Assembly (NCBI GenBank): GCA_000004985.1
Contig: GG738930.1
Length of the DNA: 64,000 bases
Reading direction: 5' to 3' (one strand)
Source of the DNA: Naegleria gruberi
Taxonomy: Eukaryota
In this document: positions 29,036 through 45,772 of the stretch, one piece after another
Layout: every line of letters starts with the position of its first letter
Position numbering within the stretch: position 1 is the stretch's first letter
Position numbers and translations under genes: made by a program
The notes under the pieces: generated by a model
Databases searched by the model: none
Seen by the model: the letters and a program-made list of their open reading frames with translations, nothing else
Told to the model about the DNA's origin: nothing

Positions 29036-29498
29036 TTTTTTGAATGGTTGGGTTGCTATGGATGACCATTCACGCTGTTAAAAGAAAACAATTAGAAATC
29101 GAATAGTTTTCCACAGTGTGTACTGGAATGCAATATCGCATTGTTACAAACAGTGTTTTACCAGTTCAATCAAGTTGACCATCAAATGTCGGTAAAATAG
29201 AGGTAGGCAACATCTTCTATCATTTTTTGGCTTGTGTCTATCGGATAGTTTGACTCTTCCTATTTAATAGAAAATCATTCAAATTGAATAATTGTGAAAA
29301 ACCATAGAGAACTTCCATGGGTTGAAGTATTAAATTGAATTGTATAAAAAATTAAAGAGGATTCTTTTCACAAGTTCTCAATATTTCGTGTTTGATGCGT
29401 TCGAACACAATTAAGGCAAACTCTAAAAATTACCAAACGTTCCTTCTCTTGTACGGTTTCATTTTTTCCTTCCTTTTTTTCATTTTATATGTTATTTA

Positions 29499-29604
29499 AG
29501 AACAATTAAGGTTTGTATAGTAGGAAATATAGCTGGCGTAGCTCAGTCGGTAGAGCGTTGGTCTAATAAGCCATTGGTCGCCGGTTCGATCCCGTCCGTC
29601 AGCA
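29499..29604 (+). repeat. tRNA-Ile repeat unit including a conserved 5' flank (copy 1 of an inverted pair)
   Basis: The 5' flank aagaacaattaaggttt...aatata is shared with the reverse complement of 44419-44454. The tRNA bodies are 73/73 identical. Confidence 0.7.
29532..29604 (+). tRNA. tRNA-Ile (anticodon AAT)
   Basis: 73 nt, GCTGGCGTAGCTCAGTCGGTAGAGCGTTGGTCTAATAAGCCATTGGTCGCCGGTTCGATCCCGTCCGTCAGCA. The acceptor stem pairs 7/7 (one GU). D arm GCTC/GAGC. Anticodon loop CTAATAA. T loop TTCGATC. One mismatch each in the anticodon and T stems. Confidence 0.8.
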
Positions 29605-31698: not shown

Positions 31699-32663
31699 TT
31701 AGAACCACTTTTTACCAAACTTGCCAAACTTCTTTCCGATTTTTCCAATCTTTCCAAATTTACCAAACTTGCCCATTTTCTTTCCCATCTTTTTCAATTT
31801 TTTCATATCCTTATGAGTATGATAACCTGGTGTGACATGAGCGTGCATTGTTGTAGTTGGTTGTTGATAATAACTAGTTGTAGTTGTTGTACTACCAGTG
31901 ACAACAGGTTGTTGTGGATAACCAGTTTGCATTGGTGGAGCATATCCTTGCATTGGTTGTTGTGGATAACCTTGTTGAGGGTATCCTTGTTGGACCATAG
32001 GTTGTTGAGGATAACCTTGCATTGGTTGTTGAGGGTAACCTTGTTGAGGATATCCCTGTTGAGGGTATCCTTGTTGTGGATAACCTTGCATTGGTTGTTG
32101 AGGATATCCTTGTTGAGGGTATCCTTGCATTGGTTGCTGTGGATAACCTGTTTGCATTGGTTGTTGTGGATAACCTTGTTGTGGAACCATTGCTTGAATT
32201 CCAAAGTCTTGAGCCAATAAGTCAACAACAAGACTTCCAGATTTGGCTCCAGTCAAAGATAATGTCAACTTTTCAACTACACCTCTCTTCAATGAAGACA
32301 ATGGTGCTGAACAACTTCCCATAGAATCATGTTTACCGATCAAATCATGATCAAATACATCAAAAGTTACCATTTCTCTACTAGGATCACTAACAGAGAA
32401 TGTAAAAGTTTGTGCCCAGGTTGGATTGAGGGTAGCTGGTTTCACAGATGTTTTCTGAGAGGAACTTCCAACTCTAACCACAACATATGGATCTGTTAGT
32501 TATTATTATTATTGGCGTCGTTTTTGATCATCACAAAACAATTATTTCACATCAAATCACGATCAATAACCAAATTTTAATCACACTACTTACCCGATGT
32601 ACCACTAATGTCTTTAGCAACAAGTCTTTGACCTGCAACAACGGTTACTGTCAATGTTGGCAT
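31699..32663 (-). CDS. C2-domain protein with (GYPQQ/PMQ)n repeats and a Lys/Gly/Phe-rich basic C-terminal tail (2 exons: 32663..32594, 32502..31699)
   Basis: Exon 1 is [23 protein letters not shown] + G, with donor GTAAGT. The 91-nt intron ends ctaacAG. Exon 2 is [34 protein letters not shown]...[16 protein letters not shown] (C2 hallmark SDPYV...NPxW). About 16 GYPQQ-type repeats follow, then the tail [34 protein letters not shown]. Confidence 0.65.
31880..32215 (-). repeat. in-frame tandem coding repeat, GYPQQ(PMQ) units of 15-24 nt
   Basis: Visible as reiterated ggataaccttgttg / tggttgttgagg motifs on the plus strand. It generates spurious ORFs in the other frames. Confidence 0.8.
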
Positions 32664-38122: not shown

Positions 38123-39964
38123 ATGTCATCCTCTCCATTTGGCATTCACAAAACTGATAAATCATCATCAGCAACTCCACCAACCACCATCAACAATAGT
38201 GTGCCACCACCTCCTCCTAACAATATTGTTAATAATAATAATAACACAACTTTACCAAATTGGAGACAACAACAATTGACAAAAAAGGAAGAATCAAAAA
38301 GTGTTGCTGTTGGTTGTAGTTTACCAAATGTTCCACCTCCACCACCTTCAATTGGTTCAGGTTATCAAATTCCTCCTAAAAATGTCACTACTTCACAGTT
38401 GACTAGTTCAAGTAAATCTACTACTCAACCAATTGTTCCTCCTCCTCCACCTGGTATTGTTAACAACCATTCAATGAATCAACAACCAAATTGGAGACAA
38501 CAACAACAAATTAAAAAGGAAGAATCTAATAGATCTGTAACTAATGCTACTCAACAACTGCCAAATGTTCCACCTCCACCTGGTAATAGTGTCACTCAAA
38601 ATCTCCAACAACCAAATTGGAGACAACAACAACAAGCAATGAATACTAAAAAAGAAAACATAACCATTCCACCTCCAATACCAAGCTCAACAACAACTGT
38701 CAAACTTCCAACTAGTACAGCACCTCCAACAAGCTCAACAACTGTCACATCCTCTCATGCTGTTACAGTAGGTAGTGGTGGAATTGTTGTTCCTCCCCCT
38801 CCACCTGGTAATTTTGTGGCAATAACTCACCAAGCAAATGTCAGAAAACCAATTATTAACACTTACATTCCACCAGTAGTTGTCAGTACTGAAGAAACTT
38901 TGGAATTTTACAAGGAATTATGTGATAAAATTCCAGAAAAGAGAATTGGACCTGGATTTAAGGACATTCCAGAACCAAAATTCAATTGTAAAAAGCATAC
39001 GAATACTGGTGATTCAGAATTGGAACTTTCGATTGAGGATAGTGATCCAAATTATGTTGTAATACCTTCTCAATTCCAATACGATAGTGGACTGGGATTT
39101 AGTTTTGCATTCTCTGTCAGAATTCACAATCCAAAGCCTTATTACATTTTTGTAAGGGAGGTGCAAGTTTTTTACAAGGATATGACTGGAAAGTGGATTG
39201 AAGCAAATTTTCCATCCTACCAAACATTGGGAATCAATTTTCATCACGATGACAAGTTAAAAGTTGAAGGAATGGAAAAACTTTGGTGTCATTTCACAGC
39301 CAATTTCACACCAATTCCAAAACTTAGTCAAGTTATTTGGGGAACTTCTTACAGTTATATTACACATCCCTCTCTCCCTCAACCATTGACCTTGAAATTG
39401 ATCATTCATGATTCTCTTGAAAAAACCAAAGAGTTACTTGTTGAGCAAGTGAATGTAATTTTCCCAAAAAAGAGAAACAATCGATACATTGAAATATTGA
39501 ATGAAATCTCAACATTTAAAAAGGGAACCAAGTATGGAATTGAAACTGTCGAATCGTTCTATAAGATTGTTTTTTGTGAAGATATGTATTATGGGGATGC
39601 CAAATTCATCTCATTTGGATTTCAAGATCATGAGGAACGAGAGGAAAATAGAGATAAAATCCCAACCTCAATCGAGATTAGTTGTGGCAGTATGAGTGAA
39701 AGTTCCAACTACAGTGAAACACAATACATCCAAATTGATTTTATTGAAAAGTTGGAACAGCAAGCAAAGAAGGAAAACCTTTCTGAGATTCCATATGCAC
39801 ACTTTGGTGTTGTCTTTCTATTCGATTCGAAAGGGCTCATGTATGGGGCGAGAGTGAAGATTGAGTCGACCTCTCAAACTGTGGAAAAAATTGTCTTGCT
39901 TAGAGATTTGATTAAGGTACTCAAATTGGACAAACAAACTATCAAGAAGAGATTTATTTATTAA
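38123..39964 (+). CDS. proline-rich protein with three PNWRQQQ(Q)-KKEES repeats interleaved with PPPPP tracts, plus a globular C-terminal domain, 613 aa
   Basis: Real ATG at 38123 (aaaaaATG). The repeats are LPNWRQQQLTKKEESKS, QPNWRQQQQIKKEESNRS and QPNWRQQQQAMNTKKENIT, each preceded by a VPPPPP(G/N) tract. Confidence 0.55.
   Translation: MSSSPFGIHKTDKSSSATPPTTINNSVPPPPPNNIVNNNNNTTLPNWRQQQLTKKEESKSVAVGCSLPNVPPPPPSIGSGYQIPPKNVTTSQLTSSSKSTTQPIVPPPPPGIVNNHSMNQQPNWRQQQQIKKEESNRSVTNATQQLPNVPPPPGNSVTQNLQQPNWRQQQQAMNTKKENITIPPPIPSSTTTVKLPTSTAPPTSSTTVTSSHAVTVGSGGIVVPPPPPGNFVAITHQANVRKPIINTYIPPVVVSTEETLEFYKELCDKIPEKRIGPGFKDIPEPKFNCKKHTNTGDSELELSIEDSDPNYVVIPSQFQYDSGLGFSFAFSVRIHNPKPYYIFVREVQVFYKDMTGKWIEANFPSYQTLGINFHHDDKLKVEGMEKLWCHFTANFTPIPKLSQVIWGTSYSYITHPSLPQPLTLKLIIHDSLEKTKELLVEQVNVIFPKKRNNRYIEILNEISTFKKGTKYGIETVESFYKIVFCEDMYYGDAKFISFGFQDHEEREENRDKIPTSIEISCGSMSESSNYSETQYIQIDFIEKLEQQAKKENLSEIPYAHFGVVFLFDSKGLMYGARVKIESTSQTVEKIVLLRDLIKVLKLDKQTIKKRFIY
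38240..38690 (+). repeat. three tandem coding repeats of about 150 nt (polyPro + PNWRQQQ + KKEES)
   Basis: Reiterated ccaaattggagacaacaacaa at roughly 38260, 38488 and 38613. Confidence 0.7.
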
Positions 39965-40066: not shown

Positions 40067-42603
40067 ATGAATAGACAACTATTGGAATATGTTTATAATC
40101 TCTTTCCGAATCCAACAACTGTAAAATTAAAATTCATCCGATCGGATGATGATATGAGCCTTGTACTACATCAAAACATTGCAGTCTTGTTTTTTCATTA
40201 CAAGGGAAAGACTGTTAATGTAATTGATGAAACAATTTTAGATAATTTGGGAAAGGTTTGTTTTTAAAGATCATCAGCTGATTGAATATTTAAATTATTT
40301 AAATATTAATTATTGGAAAATTACAGATGATCGGAGATGTAGAACGTTTAGTATTGGAAGGTAAAATACATGGATTAATGATGTACAGTTTAAAAAAGGA
40401 TTGTTTTATTGCAGGAGCTGATGTAAATATGATTTATACAATAACTGATAGAGAAAAAGCAAAAACTCTCTCAAGAACAGGACAATACCTCACGAGAAGG
40501 ATTGAATATTTACCAATTGTTGTTTTGGCTGCAATTCATGGAGTTTGTTTGGGAGGAGGATTTGAATTGTGTTTGGCAGCATCCCATAGAGTTTGTTCTA
40601 ATTATTCAAAAACTTATTGTGGACTTCCTGAAACGAAATTGGGGATTTTGACAGGTTCAGGTGGGTGTGTCAGATTGCCACGATTGATTGGATTGGATAA
40701 TTCGATTCAAATGATTTTACAAGGAAGTTCCATTGGAGCTAAGAGTGCATTGGAATGTGGAATTGTTGATCAGGTGTTTCCTTACGAAGTTGAACAGAAT
40801 AATGATGAATACATATCAAAAACCAAACCTCAAGCACAAGATGTGGAATTCTTTCAAAGATCTTTCGAATATATCAAGGATTTATCTGTACAGACACTTC
40901 CTGAAAGGGAGGAATTAATTGCTGAAGCAATGAAGGATATATTACAAGTTGCTTCCTCACGATTATTCAATAGGGAGCCATCTTTCCAATTACAAAAGTA
41001 CAAGAGAAGGAAAATATCTATCAGAGAATATCTGAAAGACAATCCAATTGGAAGATTATTTATCGAGTTTATTGCTTCAAATAATATCAAGAAACAAACA
41101 AGAGGAAGACCATTCCATTCGCCACACAAAATATTGGAAACAATAATTAGTGGATATACCATGACAATAGATCAAGCCCTGGAGATTGAGGCATCTAATT
41201 TTGCAGAGCTTGTCATTGATCCAGTTTCTAAAAATTTGATTTCCCTCTTTAACATGTTGGAAGCTGCTAAAAAGGCCGAAAATTATTGTGATCCTCAATA
41301 TTGTCATTTGAAGATCAAGCAAGTAATCAACAGGATTGCTGTTTGTGGAGCTGGTCAAATGGGATGTGGAATTACTCAACTCTGTCTATCAAAAGGTTAC
41401 AACGTCTATCTAAAAGAGGTGGAATATCACTACTTGGAAAATGGATTGAAACGTATCAAGAATGAGCTCTACTCTAAACAAATTCGTTCTGGAAAGGTAA
41501 CAGAAAATCAACGAGATGAAGTCATTTCCAAATATTTAGAAACTGGCTTGAAATATGACCCAATAGAAAATTGCCAAATGGTTATTGAAGCAGCCCTTGA
41601 AAGAATTGACATTAAGAAGGAAGTTCTCGAGAGAGCACAAGCATTCAACAAGGAAATAATTTTTGCCACCAATACCTCCTCAATTCCATTAACATCCATC
41701 GCAGAGGAGAGTAACATGAAGCAAAATGTGATTGGGTTGCACTTTTTCAATCCAGCCAATGAGATGCCACTTGTGGAAATTATTGCTACGAGATATACTT
41801 CACAGGAGGTATTAGCGAAAGCTTACCAATTTGCTCTAGATTTGGGGAAAATTCCAATTGTTGTGAATGATAGTCCAGGATTTTTAACAACCAGATTATT
41901 TGTGGTGTATTGCATTGAGGCAACAAGTATTGTATTGGATGGTGTTCCATTTGAGGAAATTGATCAACGATTACAAGAATTTGGATTTTCAACAGGTGTA
42001 TTGTCTATGCTAGATCACAATGGTCTCGATGTTGCCATTCACGTCATGCCAATCCTAGCCCAAAATTTGGCACTCAGATTTGACCACTACGAAGCCCTTA
42101 AAGAACTAGTTAAAGGTGGCAATACAGGTGTGAAAAATAGAAAGGGTTTCTACTTGTACGATGAATATGGAAGACAAACTGGAATCAATCCGGAAGCTCT
42201 CAAAATTATTTCTCGCTATCAAGCCAAGAGAGAAAGAAAAGTAACACTGGCAACACTCTACGATGATATTGTTGATCGATGCATTCTCGTCTTGGTCAAT
42301 GAGGCAAGTAAATGCATTGAGGAAGGAATTATTGCACTACCTGAAGCTGTGGATATTTCAATGATTATGGGATTTGGATTTCCATCATTCCTTGGAGGTT
42401 TACTTTCATTTGCTGATTCGTTGGGAATTGCAAATATTGTAAAAAGATTGGAAGAGCTCTCTATTAGATATGATTCTGTCAAAATGCCATCAAAACTGTT
42501 GGTTGATATGGCAAAATCTAATCATCACTTCTTCCCTGAACGAGTTGTTTTGCATTCAATTATTGCCAAACAACAAAATCAACAACATGCAAGTAAATTG
42601 TAA
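40067..42603 (+). CDS. peroxisomal multifunctional beta-oxidation enzyme, L-bifunctional type (enoyl-CoA hydratase/isomerase + 3-hydroxyacyl-CoA dehydrogenase), C-terminal -SKL (2 exons: 40067..40255, 40327..42603)
   Basis: Exon 1 is MNRQLLEYVYNLFPNPTTVKLKFIRSDDDMSLVLHQNIAVLFFHYKGKTVNVIDETILDNLGK, with donor GTTTGT. The 71-nt intron ends ttacAG. Exon 2 begins MIGDVERLVLEG.... The crotonase fold is seen in AGADV, GGGFELCLA and LPETKLGI. The 3HCDH NAD-binding site is IAVCGAGQMGCGITQ. The protein ends ...QQHASKL (PTS1). Confidence 0.8.
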
Positions 42604-43443
42604 AGTATTGTAAAAGAATTTGAAATTTATTTTAACGGATGGAGAAAAGTTTATTTGAATGGTAGGATTTTGATGAAGCAATAACACGAAAGTGTTATTA
42701 ACGTTGATCAGTGGTTGGGAGAAATTTACAAAGAAAGGAATGGAGGTTAGAATACAGAGTTTCGAATAAACTTTCTCCATCATAGGCAGTTGAAGATTAT
42801 TTTACAAGCAGTTGTTAATGTTTTACAAAGTGTGGCTCTGACTTGATTGTTGTAACAGTACTAACAGCAGCAACAATTGCAAGAGTAACAGCAGCAGTTC
42901 TTAAATTCCACATTACGAATTGAGTTTTGGTGAAAGGAGTTTTTTTCTGATTTTTTGTTTGTAACAAGATTGATGTGATCAAAGTTTTCATTTGATCAAA
43001 TACCATATTTGAAACCAATTTGTTTATCTCTTTCGAATATCAAACATCATTTTACAATAGTTTAATCATCTTGAATACAATGATCTACCAAATATCATAC
43101 AATTCAATTCCATCAACTCCTGCCTCATTGCATTATCAGTATACTGTTCAATAATGGTCTTATTTTCATCAATAGCTTTTGTTGGAAGTTGAGAAATTCC
43201 ACCCTTTTGAGGTTTGCTCAAATCAAACCATGGAAAAATAATTCAGCTTTTACATTCCAAGGAAATAATTATTTCTTGTAAAATCATGAGCAATAATTCT
43301 AGGCGCTGTAGTCTTCATACAACTGTCCGAATGTTTTATTGTTGACAGCGCGTGCGTTTTATTCAAGTTTAACACGCACACATTCTTAATAAAAAAAACA
43401 GAAGAACTTTTTGAAAAACATATTCGAAATAAGACAAAAAAAA

Positions 43444-44259
43444 ATGAAGATTGGAATTATTGGTGCAGGTCATATAGGATCAACCCTTGCAAAACTACTT
43501 GTTCAACAAGGTCACACTGTTTTGATTGCCAACTCAAGAGGTCCTCAAACATTGAAACAAGTACAAGAGGAGACTAAGGCAAAACCTGTCGAGCTGTTGG
43601 AGATTGTTCAAGAAGGTGATTTGGATATCATCATTCTCACAATTCCATTTAAAAACGTTTCTCTCCTTCCCAAGAATTTGTTCCAGAACCTTCCTCAACA
43701 AGTGATTGTGGTTGATACGTGCAATTATTATCCAGGAGTTAGAGATTCTCCTACTGATGAATTGGACAAGGAGATCATTACCCATAGTGAATGGGTTTCT
43801 CAACAAATTGGTCATTCTGTAGTTAAAGTGTTTAACAATATTTTGACACATAGTTTGGCAGTTAAGGGTGCTAAAAAAGGTCAAACAAGAATTGCACTAC
43901 CAGTTGCTGGAAATGATCCTTCAAAAAAGAAAGTGATCCTTGATTTGGTTGATCAACTTGGATTTGATCCTGTTGATTCTGGAACTTTGGATGAATCATG
44001 GAGACAACATCCTGCCACACCTAGTTATTGTACTGATTTGAATGTGGATGATTTGAAACAAGCCCTTCATAGTGCTGACAAAACGATTAGAGTTCAACTT
44101 CTCAGTCAAGCATTTTCTCAATACGGTAAGGTACATCTTGCTTATTGTGAAAAGCATGGAAAAGATGCTACCAAGTTTACATTTCAAGACTTACTAGATG
44201 AGGGAGGTGATGAAATCAATGACATTGTTGTCAACATTAACCGTTCATTGTATCAATAA
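43444..44259 (+). CDS. NAD(P)-binding Rossmann oxidoreductase of the F420-dependent NADP reductase-like / COG2085 type (bacterial-type), intronless, 271 aa
   Basis: Real ATG at 43444 (aaaaaaaATG). MKIGIIGAGHIGSTLAKLLVQQGHTVLIANSRGP (GxGxxG). ...IALPVAGNDPSKKKVILDLVDQLGFDPVDSGTLDESWRQHPATP is typical of bacterial dinucleotide-binding reductases, as far as I recall. Confidence 0.65.
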   Translation: MKIGIIGAGHIGSTLAKLLVQQGHTVLIANSRGPQTLKQVQEETKAKPVELLEIVQEGDLDIIILTIPFKNVSLLPKNLFQNLPQQVIVVDTCNYYPGVRDSPTDELDKEIITHSEWVSQQIGHSVVKVFNNILTHSLAVKGAKKGQTRIALPVAGNDPSKKKVILDLVDQLGFDPVDSGTLDESWRQHPATPSYCTDLNVDDLKQALHSADKTIRVQLLSQAFSQYGKVHLAYCEKHGKDATKFTFQDLLDEGGDEINDIVVNINRSLYQ

Positions 44260-44345
44260 TGAACTTATCTGTAAATTAAGGCACATTAAATATTGATTCA
44301 CGATTGTCATGTTTTTAAATCAATTATTGCAAAACTAAAATTATT

Positions 44346-44418
44346 TGCTGACGGACGGGATCGAACCGGCGACCAATGGCTTATTAGACCAACGCTCTAC
44401 CGACTGAGCTACGCCAGC
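44346..44418 (-). tRNA. tRNA-Ile (anticodon AAT), second copy, inverted relative to the first
   Basis: The reverse complement of 44346-44418 is identical (73/73) to 29532-29604. Confidence 0.8.
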
Positions 44419-44454
44419 TATATTCATTGATGAAATAAACCTTAATTGTTCTTC
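44346..44454 (-). repeat. tRNA-Ile repeat unit including a conserved 5' flank (copy 2 of the inverted pair)
   Basis: The reverse complement of 44419-44454 contains gaagaacaattaaggttt...aatata, matching 29498-29531. Confidence 0.7.
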
Positions 44455-44539: not shown

Positions 44540-45772
44540 ATGGAACAAATTCTTAAGGAAGAACACTACTTGAGGAATGAAGAAAACCTCAATGTATCAT
44601 CATCCGATAGCAAATGTTCTTCATCAAATAAGAGAGGCCACGAAAGTATTGAATCTTCAGAAGAACACAATCATGAACAATCCACCTTACAACCTCCTTC
44701 TAAATCGCTCAAATTAAATGTTGAACCTCATCAGCAACAAGACGATCTCGAAATACTTCTCAACCGATTGAAAGAAATTGAAGAGGAAAAGTGCAAGATA
44801 ATTCAAGAATTCAAATTACAAGAAGCCTTATTAGAGAAGGAACGTTTGGAAATTCTCTCCATGATAACTCTTGGTAATGAAGAATTTGATACAAAGAAGC
44901 CCGTTCACCTCAATGTTGGTGGATACATACTGACTATTTGTATGGGTGTATTTGTCAATTCTGTGAGGGAACCAAATAATGTAATTGATAAGATGTTTAA
45001 GGGAATAATTCCACTTCATGAAACTCCTTCATTAGTATTCGAGGAGAAGGTTTTCTTTATAGATTGTGATGTTGCTATTTTCAAGATTATTATCGAGTGG
45101 ATGAAAACAGGAGAATGTGAAAAGCTTTCGGAAAAGGAACTGAAATTAGTATTGAGAGCTTGTGAAGAGTTTGGATTTGAGAATTTTAGGAATCACTTGA
45201 TACAAGAAAAACAAGCAACTCTTCCACCAACAGCATCTGACACTATAACTAATTCTAATATTTTGGATCCTAACATATTAAGGGAACTCTTTGAAAAACA
45301 TGTAAAGTCAAAGAATGATGGTTTATTATATAGAGGAACAAGAGATGGTTTTAAGGCAACCGACTTTCACAAACATTGTGATCAACAAGGGAAGACTGTG
45401 ACGATTGTTCAATCAAGAAATGGTCATATATTTGGTGGATTTACATCAAATAATTGGGAATCTTCCAAAGGTTTCAGAACAGATCCCTCTGCATTCATAT
45501 TCAAGATTGATTCTGCATCCATTTCACGATTTGATATCAAATCTGACTCGTATAGGAATGCAATTTCTTGTGATATTGAAAGTCTTCCTTCTTTTGGTTT
45601 GGATTTCAAACTCTCCTCATCATGCAATGAAAATTCCAACTCATACTCCAACTTTGGGCACACCTATCAATTACCAACTGGATTCACTTATGAAAGTGAG
45701 CAGGCAAGAAAGTATTTAGCTGGTAGTTGCAAATTCCAAGTAGTGGAAATTGAAGTATTTAAAGCACTCTAA
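44540..45772 (+). CDS. BTB/POZ + TLDc domain protein
   Basis: First ATG at 44540 (MEQILKEEHYL...). BTB: PVHLNVGGYILTICMGVFVNS...VFFIDCDVAIFKIIIEWMKTGECE. TLDc: LLYRGTRDGFKATDFHKHCDQQGKTVTIVQSRNGHIFGGFTSNNWE...YLAGSCKFQVVEIEVFKAL. Confidence 0.7.
   Translation: MEQILKEEHYLRNEENLNVSSSDSKCSSSNKRGHESIESSEEHNHEQSTLQPPSKSLKLNVEPHQQQDDLEILLNRLKEIEEEKCKIIQEFKLQEALLEKERLEILSMITLGNEEFDTKKPVHLNVGGYILTICMGVFVNSVREPNNVIDKMFKGIIPLHETPSLVFEEKVFFIDCDVAIFKIIIEWMKTGECEKLSEKELKLVLRACEEFGFENFRNHLIQEKQATLPPTASDTITNSNILDPNILRELFEKHVKSKNDGLLYRGTRDGFKATDFHKHCDQQGKTVTIVQSRNGHIFGGFTSNNWESSKGFRTDPSAFIFKIDSASISRFDIKSDSYRNAISCDIESLPSFGLDFKLSSSCNENSNSYSNFGHTYQLPTGFTYESEQARKYLAGSCKFQVVEIEVFKAL

Follow-up and report, generated by a model that had tools for sequence, protein, structure and literature searches.

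A putative NADPH-dependent oxidoreductase gene of bacterial type in Naegleria gruberi, probably acquired by horizontal transfer before the Naegleria/Willaertia split

Background

The gene NAEGRDRAFT_75850 (XP_002669187.1; UniProt D2W380) of the amoeba Naegleria gruberi lies at 43444..44259 on the plus strand of a 64,000-nucleotide stretch of contig GG738930.1 (assembly GCA_000004985.1), referred to below as the window, and encodes a 271-residue protein with an N-terminal Rossmann domain. Three described systems come close to this protein. The best solved match, both by sequence (E=3e-16) and by fold, is SMa0349 (4HUJ), an uncharacterised structural-genomics protein from megaplasmid pSymA of Sinorhizobium meliloti; Foldseek aligned the two with E=3e-16, 32% identity and a target-normalised template modelling (TM) score of 0.81, over the same core of Rossmann domain and small subdomain. 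However, SMa0349 has only about 205 residues, lacks the C-terminal hairpin of the amoeba protein and belongs to another subfamily, without the motifs DTCNYYP and ESWRQxPGTP. The second system is the N-terminal NADPH domain of STEAP3, STEAP4 and STEAP2 (2VNS, 2YJZ, 6HCY, 7TAI), which moves electrons from NADPH to flavin. It has the same fold (TM about 0.81-0.83, target-normalised), and the segment 'GSGDF...SRNP' of STEAP3 aligns with the amoeba Rossmann region, the motif GxGxxG...SR(N/G)P being common to both; but identity is only about 25%, and the amoeba protein is free-standing, soluble and much closer to bacterial proteins. The third is the F420H2:NADP+ oxidoreductase Fno/NpdG (TIGR01915; 1JAX/1JAY, 5N2I), which has Pfam family PF03807 and the overall fold in common with the amoeba protein and whose name is automatically attached to many of its homologues, but characterised Fno is only 20-22% identical and the amoeba protein has an extra C-terminal hairpin.

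The transfers from bacteria documented in Naegleria, Willaertia and Acanthamoeba, including exchanges with Legionella, have the form of a single metabolic gene among vertically inherited genes. Host-like composition combined with bacterial nearest relatives is described as the usual transfer pattern in phagotrophic protists in three papers (PMC4082486, PMC6892926, PMC4053784). The present gene differs from the documented cases in being multi-copy and apparently older than the Naegleria/Willaertia split. A search of the accessible literature found no paper naming this gene or family, COG2085 in protists, or F420 in Naegleria.

A first reading of the window, made from its letters alone and called here the original prediction, had proposed the gene as a candidate for horizontal transfer, being an intronless F420-dependent NADP reductase-like (COG2085) gene of a predominantly prokaryotic family, located beside a tRNA gene. 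On the analysis presented here, we consider it likely that a bacterial gene was acquired horizontally before Naegleria and Willaertia separated, and was then duplicated and adapted to its host.

Results and discussion

An intact gene with a subfamily-specific core

The coding sequence is complete and intronless. It runs without interruption for 271 codons from the ATG at 43444 to the TAA ending at 44259, and encodes the protein MKIGIIGAGHIGSTLAKLL...NINRSLYQ. A program-made list of open reading frames (ORFs) placed the start at an upstream TTG (43411), whereas the ATG corresponds to the start of all bacterial homologues. The frame is colinear with these homologues along its full length, which leaves no room for an intron, as the original prediction had stated. 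The window protein is 100% identical to the deposited NAEGRDRAFT_75850 on a 158,571-bp scaffold, and in a database-wide search its bacterial matches reached E values of about 1e-70; therefore the ORF is not a chance one.

The Rossmann NADP(H)-binding domain occupies residues 2-95 (43447..43728, plus strand), where PF03807 (F420_oxidored) was matched over profile positions 1-94 of 94 with E=2.6e-18 and 66.8 bits, against a cutoff of 21.6. It contains the GAGHIG motif (residues 7-12, 43462-43479) and a 2'-phosphate-type motif, NSRGP (residues 30-34, 43531-43545), both on the plus strand. Among 54 homologues G7, G9, G12, R32 and G33 are invariant, and a subfamily-specific core within 43714..44031 (plus strand), made up of DTCNYYP (91-97), R100-D101 and ESWRQHPxTPxY (184-195), is invariant or nearly so. 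The protein ends in a two-helix hairpin (residues 213-268, 44080..44247, plus strand, from the AlphaFold2 model), closed by an NxxxxINRS motif.

A wide bacterial family with a small eukaryotic outpost

Two database-wide searches were made, one with the single sequence and one with a profile of four amoeba proteins, and the best 120 matches of each were considered. In the single-sequence search of 5.8 billion proteins, the matches listed after those of Naegleria and Willaertia were bacterial or metagenomic, with lengths of 220-250 residues and about 50% identity across 70-80% of the query. With the profile, which would be expected to pick up further heterolobosean orthologues, the amoeba proteins again came first and bacteria followed. 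No named eukaryote other than N. gruberi and W. magna was found among the best 120 matches of either search, and neither N. fowleri, N. lovaniensis nor any other EukProt entry was found among the best 120 matches of the amoeba profile.

When GTDB was scanned with one genome for each species, 588 loci were confirmed. The best 80 of these showed a flat 43-54% identity across many phyla, among them Acidobacteriota, Bacillota, Bacteroidota, Pseudomonadota, Myxococcota, Actinomycetota, Verrucomicrobiota and Gemmatimonadota. HMMER, run exhaustively over representatives of clusters at 50% identity, gave 1189 clusters at E<=1e-10. The family was also present in 212 records of plasmids, of which 79 are conjugative or mobilizable. 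The family, whose bacterial members number in the thousands, is thus predominantly prokaryotic, as the original prediction held. A wide and mobile family of bacteria in which eukaryotes hold a tiny outpost is what transfer from a bacterium to a eukaryote classically leaves behind. The original prediction also held that the transfer would be refuted by closest homologues that were eukaryotic (fungal) and vertically distributed; the closest homologues are indeed eukaryotic, but they are confined to Naegleria and Willaertia, and are neither broadly distributed nor fungal. N. gruberi itself is a heterolobosean amoeba, and the fungus that the original prediction implicitly expected was a wrong assignment.

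Copies in Naegleria and Willaertia, and their phylogeny

At least three more copies are present in N. gruberi, namely NAEGRDRAFT_66125, 66113 and 75146, which lie on two scaffolds other than that of the window. NAEGRDRAFT_66125 (P0002 in the trees) and 66113 are at least 90% identical to each other and lie on one 507-kb scaffold; NAEGRDRAFT_75146 (P0126) is more divergent, with 37-42% identity to the query. Willaertia magna, named as the closest relative of Naegleria in PMC12482156, has one intronless copy. Its contig measures 377 kb, the copy is placed between genes of F-box-like, Fritz and PEMT type, and no tRNA gene is nearby.

Bootstrapped neighbour-joining (NJ) trees, based on distances only, were built from a set of 250 sequences (211 core columns) and from a set of 39 sequences run on the core, on all columns and on the tail alone. 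In the 250-sequence tree the query formed a clade with P0002 and the Willaertia copy (80% bootstrap), the last two being paired at 100%; in the 39-sequence trees this three-member amoeba clade received 58-89%, depending on the column set. One Naegleria paralogue is thus joined to the Willaertia copy before either is joined to the query, which places the duplication, and with it the presumed acquisition, before the two genera separated. Donor identification by NJ phylogeny was also attempted, and the backbone was without resolution in all four tree sets.

Several points weigh against an ancient transfer from bacteria. The searches list the best 120 matches each, and names exist for about one quarter of the proteins, so that distant eukaryotic members may have been missed; members in the genomes of N. 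fowleri, N. lovaniensis, N. clarki, Acrasis and Tetramitus may likewise have escaped these searches. The deeper NJ nodes had support near 0 in every set, and formal nesting of the amoeba proteins in a bacterial clade is not supported by these trees. The two non-amoeba sequences with the most similar tails, P0004 and P0012 (see below), were not recovered as sister of the amoeba copies (4-11% bootstrap). Finally, the grouping of P0126 with the other amoeba copies is weak: its bootstrap value is 9% in the tree of 250 sequences and, in the 39-sequence set, 22-53% when all columns or the core are used and 3% with the tail alone.

The last point bears on the number of transfers, as P0126 could be a separate acquisition, made apart from the P0001/P0002/W. 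magna group. Besides its low bootstrap values and its low identity to the query, the best BLAST matches of P0126 are bacterial rather than other amoeba copies, and its tail has no detectable similarity to the other amoeba tails. However, the hairpin of P0126 is as long as that of the other amoeba proteins, and in all sets but the tail-only one the best NJ tree places P0126 together with them. Two or more independent transfers are therefore a possibility to be kept in mind, though we doubt it; a single acquisition followed by duplication appears the better account of the amoeba copies.

The C-terminal hairpin and a lead to Legionella

Many bacterial members of the family have a two-helix tail ending with an NxxxxINRS-type motif. 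In the four amoeba proteins this tail is about 22 residues longer than in most bacterial members, and among 371 family members inspected a comparable lengthening outside the amoebae was seen only in P0004 and P0012. In a tail-only BLAST comparison of 431 members, these two were the best non-amoeba matches for three of the amoeba tails, with E values of 2.5e-5 to 0.03, and the matches were reciprocal. They also headed the non-amoeba matches of the amoeba profile, scoring 326 and 306 bits where all others had at most 295, a ranking that is itself open to the objection that profile scores may favour low-GC genomes through common amino-acid composition.

P0012 was found on a 32-kb contig of 36% GC (sample SRR24908176), where its gene is preceded by an AAAGGAG ribosome-binding site and accompanied by rlmD, relA, scpA, scpB and rluB. 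As the RelA encoded on this contig is 84% identical to RelA of several Legionella species, P0012 comes from an uncultured Legionella. The genus parasitises Naegleria, as noted in PMC12482156. P0012 (L001, positions 2094-2999) carries about 30 extra C-terminal residues, ...NSQRAEETQETTYTPAFFMK, with a glutamate-rich block and then hydrophobic residues near the end. Presumably this extension resembles Dot/Icm translocation signals. The P0012 gene adjoins a YafQ-type toxin gene and an AraC N-terminal fragment. P0004, the closest non-amoeba relative by profile score, lies on a 1.4-kb contig (L002, positions 1-1375; SRR22388317) on which there is no other convincing ORF. Its leader (acaacaaagcaaaaagacATG) is A-rich and contains no Shine-Dalgarno site; the source might be another eukaryote, or else a bacterium that does not use such sites.

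P0012 and P0004 are 55-64% identical to other bacterial proteins with the INRS tail, and in the ranking of their core matches amoeba proteins appear only at places 91 to 300; the core of P0012 has 60-64% identity to other bacteria versus about 53% to the amoeba proteins. Because P0012 is closer to other bacteria than to the amoebae, the direction from bacterium to amoeba is favoured. This asymmetry would fit fast-evolving amoeba copies derived from a bacterial subgroup with the INRS tail, and would argue against the reverse direction. In the NJ trees P0004 and P0012 were paired at 100% and never fell inside the amoeba clade. As the group of amoeba copies with P0004/P0012 reached only 4-11% bootstrap, the hint to the donor is a lead only.

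The long-hairpin gene could mark a specific exchange, in either direction, between Legionella-type intracellular bacteria and vahlkampfiid hosts: either the ancestor of the amoebae would have received the gene from a parasite of the Legionella lineage, or a version modified in the amoeba would have returned to Legionella. We regard such an exchange as rather doubtful. The second of these routes, in which the long hairpin arose in the amoebae, P0012 was taken from the host, like many eukaryote-like effectors of Legionella, and the true bacterial donor was another lineage, is unlikely. It would agree with the restriction of the lengthened hairpin to amoebae and these two sequences, with the lack of any Legionella among the best 80 GTDB loci (which suggests that the gene is rare in the genus), with the variable-looking Legionella locus and its toxin-antitoxin gene and AraC fragment, with the additional acidic extension of P0012, and with the acquisition of host genes by Legionella, reported in PMC12482156. 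But both P0012 and P0004 are clearly nearer to other bacterial INRS-tail proteins than to any amoeba copy, the amoeba proteins stand far down among their core matches, and the pair holds together outside the amoeba clade in the trees. Were the route from amoeba to Legionella true, the acidic C-terminal extension might be a secretion signal and P0012 a host-derived redox effector.

Fold and predicted function

An AlphaFold2 model built with the 54 homologues had a mean predicted local distance difference test score of 96.4 and a predicted TM score of 0.92, with the helices of the hairpin at residues 213-238 and 247-268. Foldseek ranked 4HUJ first among PDB entries, then the NADPH domains of STEAP3, STEAP4 and STEAP2, and then 3DTT and 5N2I, which represent putative and genuine F420:NADPH oxidoreductases; sequence searches agreed. 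The matches to 4huj, 2vns, 2yjz, 5n2i and 3dtt all had a probability of 1.00 and target-normalised TM scores of 0.67-0.83 over about 190-207 columns, and the C-terminal hairpin fell outside them. The Rossmann domain and the small subdomain can thus be superposed on the Fno/STEAP-type fold, and the motifs GxGxxG and SR-x-P are present. Since GxGxxG and SRGP are invariant and aligned with the STEAP3 segment, NADPH binding is a safe inference. No fusion of STEAP type was found: there is no transmembrane haem or ferric-reductase (FRD) domain, and the 271 residues are taken up by a soluble domain and the hairpin. Pyrroline-5-carboxylate reductase (ProC), another enzyme with PF03807, is not a match either, with no Pfam hit to P5CR_dimer and a root-mean-square deviation of about 15-16 A to PYCR1/ProC structures.

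The F420 dependence named in the original prediction found no support. The name of the Pfam family, the source annotations of the homologues and the fold matches to 5n2i, 3dtt and 1jax speak for a genuine F420H2:NADP+ oxidoreductase, and such an enzyme would mean that Naegleria has a deazaflavin metabolism. But the score for the NCBIfam npdG equivalog TIGR01915 was 35.3 bits, far below its cutoff of 149.8, characterised Fno shows lower identity than 4huj and the STEAP domains do, and no F420 biosynthesis genes (cof/fbi) were found in the top 25 families listed on each side of the bacterial homologues. To our knowledge, most of the host bacteria (e.g. Hymenobacter, Bacillus, Pantoea, Acidobacteria) are not known F420 producers. 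One observation points the other way: three neighbours of the bacterial homologues are luciferase-like monooxygenases, a group with some F420-using members. All in all, we consider a true Fno very unlikely.

The bacterial neighbourhoods showed recurrent regulators of the HxlR, TetR, PadR, MarR and AraC families, with scattered reductases, OsmC, AhpC and MFS transporters. A conserved operon was sought as a clue to the substrate in 230 candidate neighbour ORFs from 80 loci, whose picking was crude in high-GC genomes, and no dominant partner emerged. From fold and motifs, the protein is inferred to be an NADPH-dependent oxidoreductase of the Fno/STEAP fold acting on a small acceptor, with a plausible place in the response to redox stress or the metabolism of xenobiotics. 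DTCNYYP, RD and ESWRQxPGTPxY probably form the acceptor site, a presumed substrate or dimer region.

Vertical inheritance

Under vertical inheritance, an early-eukaryote gene would have been lost nearly everywhere except in the vahlkampfiid amoebae. The nearest homologues, the paralogues and the W. magna copy, are eukaryotic; the composition of the gene is fully host-like; a homologous domain occurs in animal STEAP proteins; and with an unresolved tree backbone a root between amoebae and bacteria is formally possible. However, no other eukaryote appeared among the matches listed, even with the amoeba-specific profile. The amoeba proteins are about 50% identical to those of bacteria of many phyla, as against about 25% to the STEAP domain, and a specific tail variant is common to the amoebae and a bacterial subgroup. 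Very many independent losses would be needed, including losses in N. fowleri and N. lovaniensis. Vertical inheritance is therefore highly improbable, and an early acquisition from a bacterium accounts better for the distribution.

Native status, composition and selection

The reductase gene does not stand out from its surroundings. Its GC content at third codon positions (GC3) is 0.26, compared with 0.21-0.33 in 27 other ORFs of the window; its codon-adaptation index, built from those other ORFs, is 0.72 (range 0.63-0.80); and its overall GC of 0.375 (37.5%) is also inside their range. The window as a whole has about 33% GC, matching the 33-37% given for Naegleria genomes in PMC12482156. The comparison of GC3 and codon usage with the flanking genes, proposed in the original prediction, hence brought out no deviation, and the compositional anomaly that could have marked a recent transfer was not seen in this gene. 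The ATG is preceded by the same kind of A-run as at other window genes and by no Shine-Dalgarno sequence, and the genes on both flanks are eukaryotic.

The same gene was found in the independent assembly of a second Naegleria isolate (ERR1078381), with 99% amino-acid identity and the junction with the tRNA gene kept. The nine coding differences between the two isolates comprise six synonymous and three nonsynonymous ones, and the resulting ratio of nonsynonymous to synonymous polymorphism (pN/pS) of 0.14 (Fisher p=0.005) indicates purifying selection. In that assembly (L086, positions 1-1221) the spacer between gene and tRNA has a 17-nt insertion, and from about 43245 upstream the divergence from the window is complete.

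NAEGRDRAFT_75850 is thus a real, intact and selectively maintained gene, native to the amoeba genome. Bacterial contamination or mis-assembly of the scaffold, which a bacterial family and an intronless gene might suggest, is effectively refuted by GC and GC3 values as in the neighbouring genes, a 158-kb scaffold with eukaryotic genes and a eukaryote-type tRNA-Ile(AAT) around the gene, the lack of a Shine-Dalgarno site, the repetition of the gene-tRNA junction in an independent sample, and the presence of paralogues on two other scaffolds and of an orthologue in the 377-kb W. magna contig. The intact ORF, the confident fold, the pN/pS of 0.14 and the retention of the paralogues and the W. magna orthologue suggest that the gene is functional in its recipient. 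The presumed transfer is old, not recent, and the gene is domesticated.

A proposed course of events

We propose that a bacterial gene entered the amoeba lineage by horizontal transfer before Naegleria and Willaertia diverged. The donor would have belonged to the bacterial subgroup with the INRS-type tail, whose best present-day representatives may be the two uncultured sequences P0004 and P0012, the latter in a Legionella genome. After the transfer, the gene would have been duplicated to at least four copies in N. gruberi and would have adopted the host composition, becoming a nuclear gene that is predicted to be expressed. Its product would be a soluble protein of about 30 kDa, made up of a Rossmann domain in which GxGxxG...SRGP forms a site of NADP(H) type, a small subdomain for substrate binding and, at the C-terminus, the helical hairpin. 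It may pass hydride from NADPH to a small redox-active acceptor, such as a flavin, a quinone or another electrophile, rather than act as a dedicated F420 reductase, and its likely role would be in stress or xenobiotic redox metabolism.

The neighbourhood of the gene and other features of the window

ARAGORN and Rfam placed a tRNA-Ile(AAT) gene at 44346-44418 on the minus strand, with 86 nt between it and the reductase stop codon, in line with the distance of 87 bp reported in the original prediction. A second, identical copy lies at 29532-29604 on the plus strand. The two share the 73-nt tRNA and an upstream element of 17 nt, AAGAACAATTAAGGTTT, and the inverted repeat is only 93 nt long; no larger duplication around the two copies was found. 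The element lies about 20-36 nt upstream of both genes (29496-29531 and 44419-44454), the remaining flanks differ, and in Naegleria it may serve Pol III as an upstream element of the promoter. As a mechanism, integration targeted to tRNA genes is bacterial. The tRNA gene had been taken as a sign of transfer, but as an integration landmark it is ruled out by the repeat of only 93 nt, the lack of a larger duplication and the tRNA-free W. magna locus; its adjacency is incidental, without a functional or mechanistic tie to the origin of the reductase gene.

Upstream, a gene for a FadB-like enoyl-CoA hydratase/3-hydroxyacyl-CoA dehydrogenase occupies 40067-42603 on the plus strand. Its exon 1 (40067-40255) is followed by a single 71-nt GT..AG intron (40256-40326), and provides the otherwise missing N-terminus of the hydratase domain. 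Between this gene and the reductase, ORF pieces on the minus strand at ~42815-43318 (MKTTAPRIIAHDFTRNNYFLG..., ...PWFDLSKPQKGGISQLPTKAIDENK... and MVFDQMKTL...SEPHFVKH) point to a small gene, apparently of three exons. The short, A-rich intergenic leader before the reductase ATG (gacaaaaaaaaATG; 43319..43443) is probably shared with this divergent gene; since the two start codons are only about 125 bp apart, the promoter may be bidirectional. Downstream, a BTB/TLDc gene at 44540-45772 consists of a single ORF. The neighbours had been described as intron-bearing, which is true of the FadB-like gene and apparently of the small minus-strand gene but not of the BTB/TLDc gene. About 28 uninterrupted ORFs of at least 180 amino acids each occur in the window, and because intronless ORFs are so common there, the lack of an intron says little about origin. 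The W. magna copy, too, is intronless among eukaryotic genes, and the missing intron therefore has to be dropped as a sign of transfer.

Elsewhere in the window, the composition profile shows a GC of 0 over about 4 kb at 1001-~5000, which is an assembly gap, and the long 'ORFs' listed there are therefore artefacts. An imperfect tandem coding repeat at 31933-32193, with 12-15 nt units in 57-nt blocks, lies inside the minus-strand ORF 31699-32481 and reads on the reverse strand as Q/G/Y/P-rich repeats. Dispersed direct repeats spaced about 130-230 nt were found at 38206-38833, inside ORF 38123-39964, which has no Pfam match; they comprise PPPPG-type proline-rich motifs and a 'ACCAAATTGGAGACAACAACAA' unit.

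Conclusions

The transfer of metabolic genes into phagotrophic protists is expected, and for a bacteria-eating amoeba the present case is an ordinary one that leaves the general picture unchanged. For the protein family, the analysis draws attention to a large and often plasmid-borne bacterial subfamily that is routinely labelled "NADPH-dependent F420 reductase" by automated pipelines, yet fails the curated model. The possible link with Legionella, which rests on one indel and the similarity of a short tail, would be relevant to gene flow between host and parasite. To the bacterial genes domesticated by free-living amoebae, NAEGRDRAFT_75850 probably adds a clean example, one that is multi-copy, under purifying selection and acquired before Naegleria and Willaertia split.

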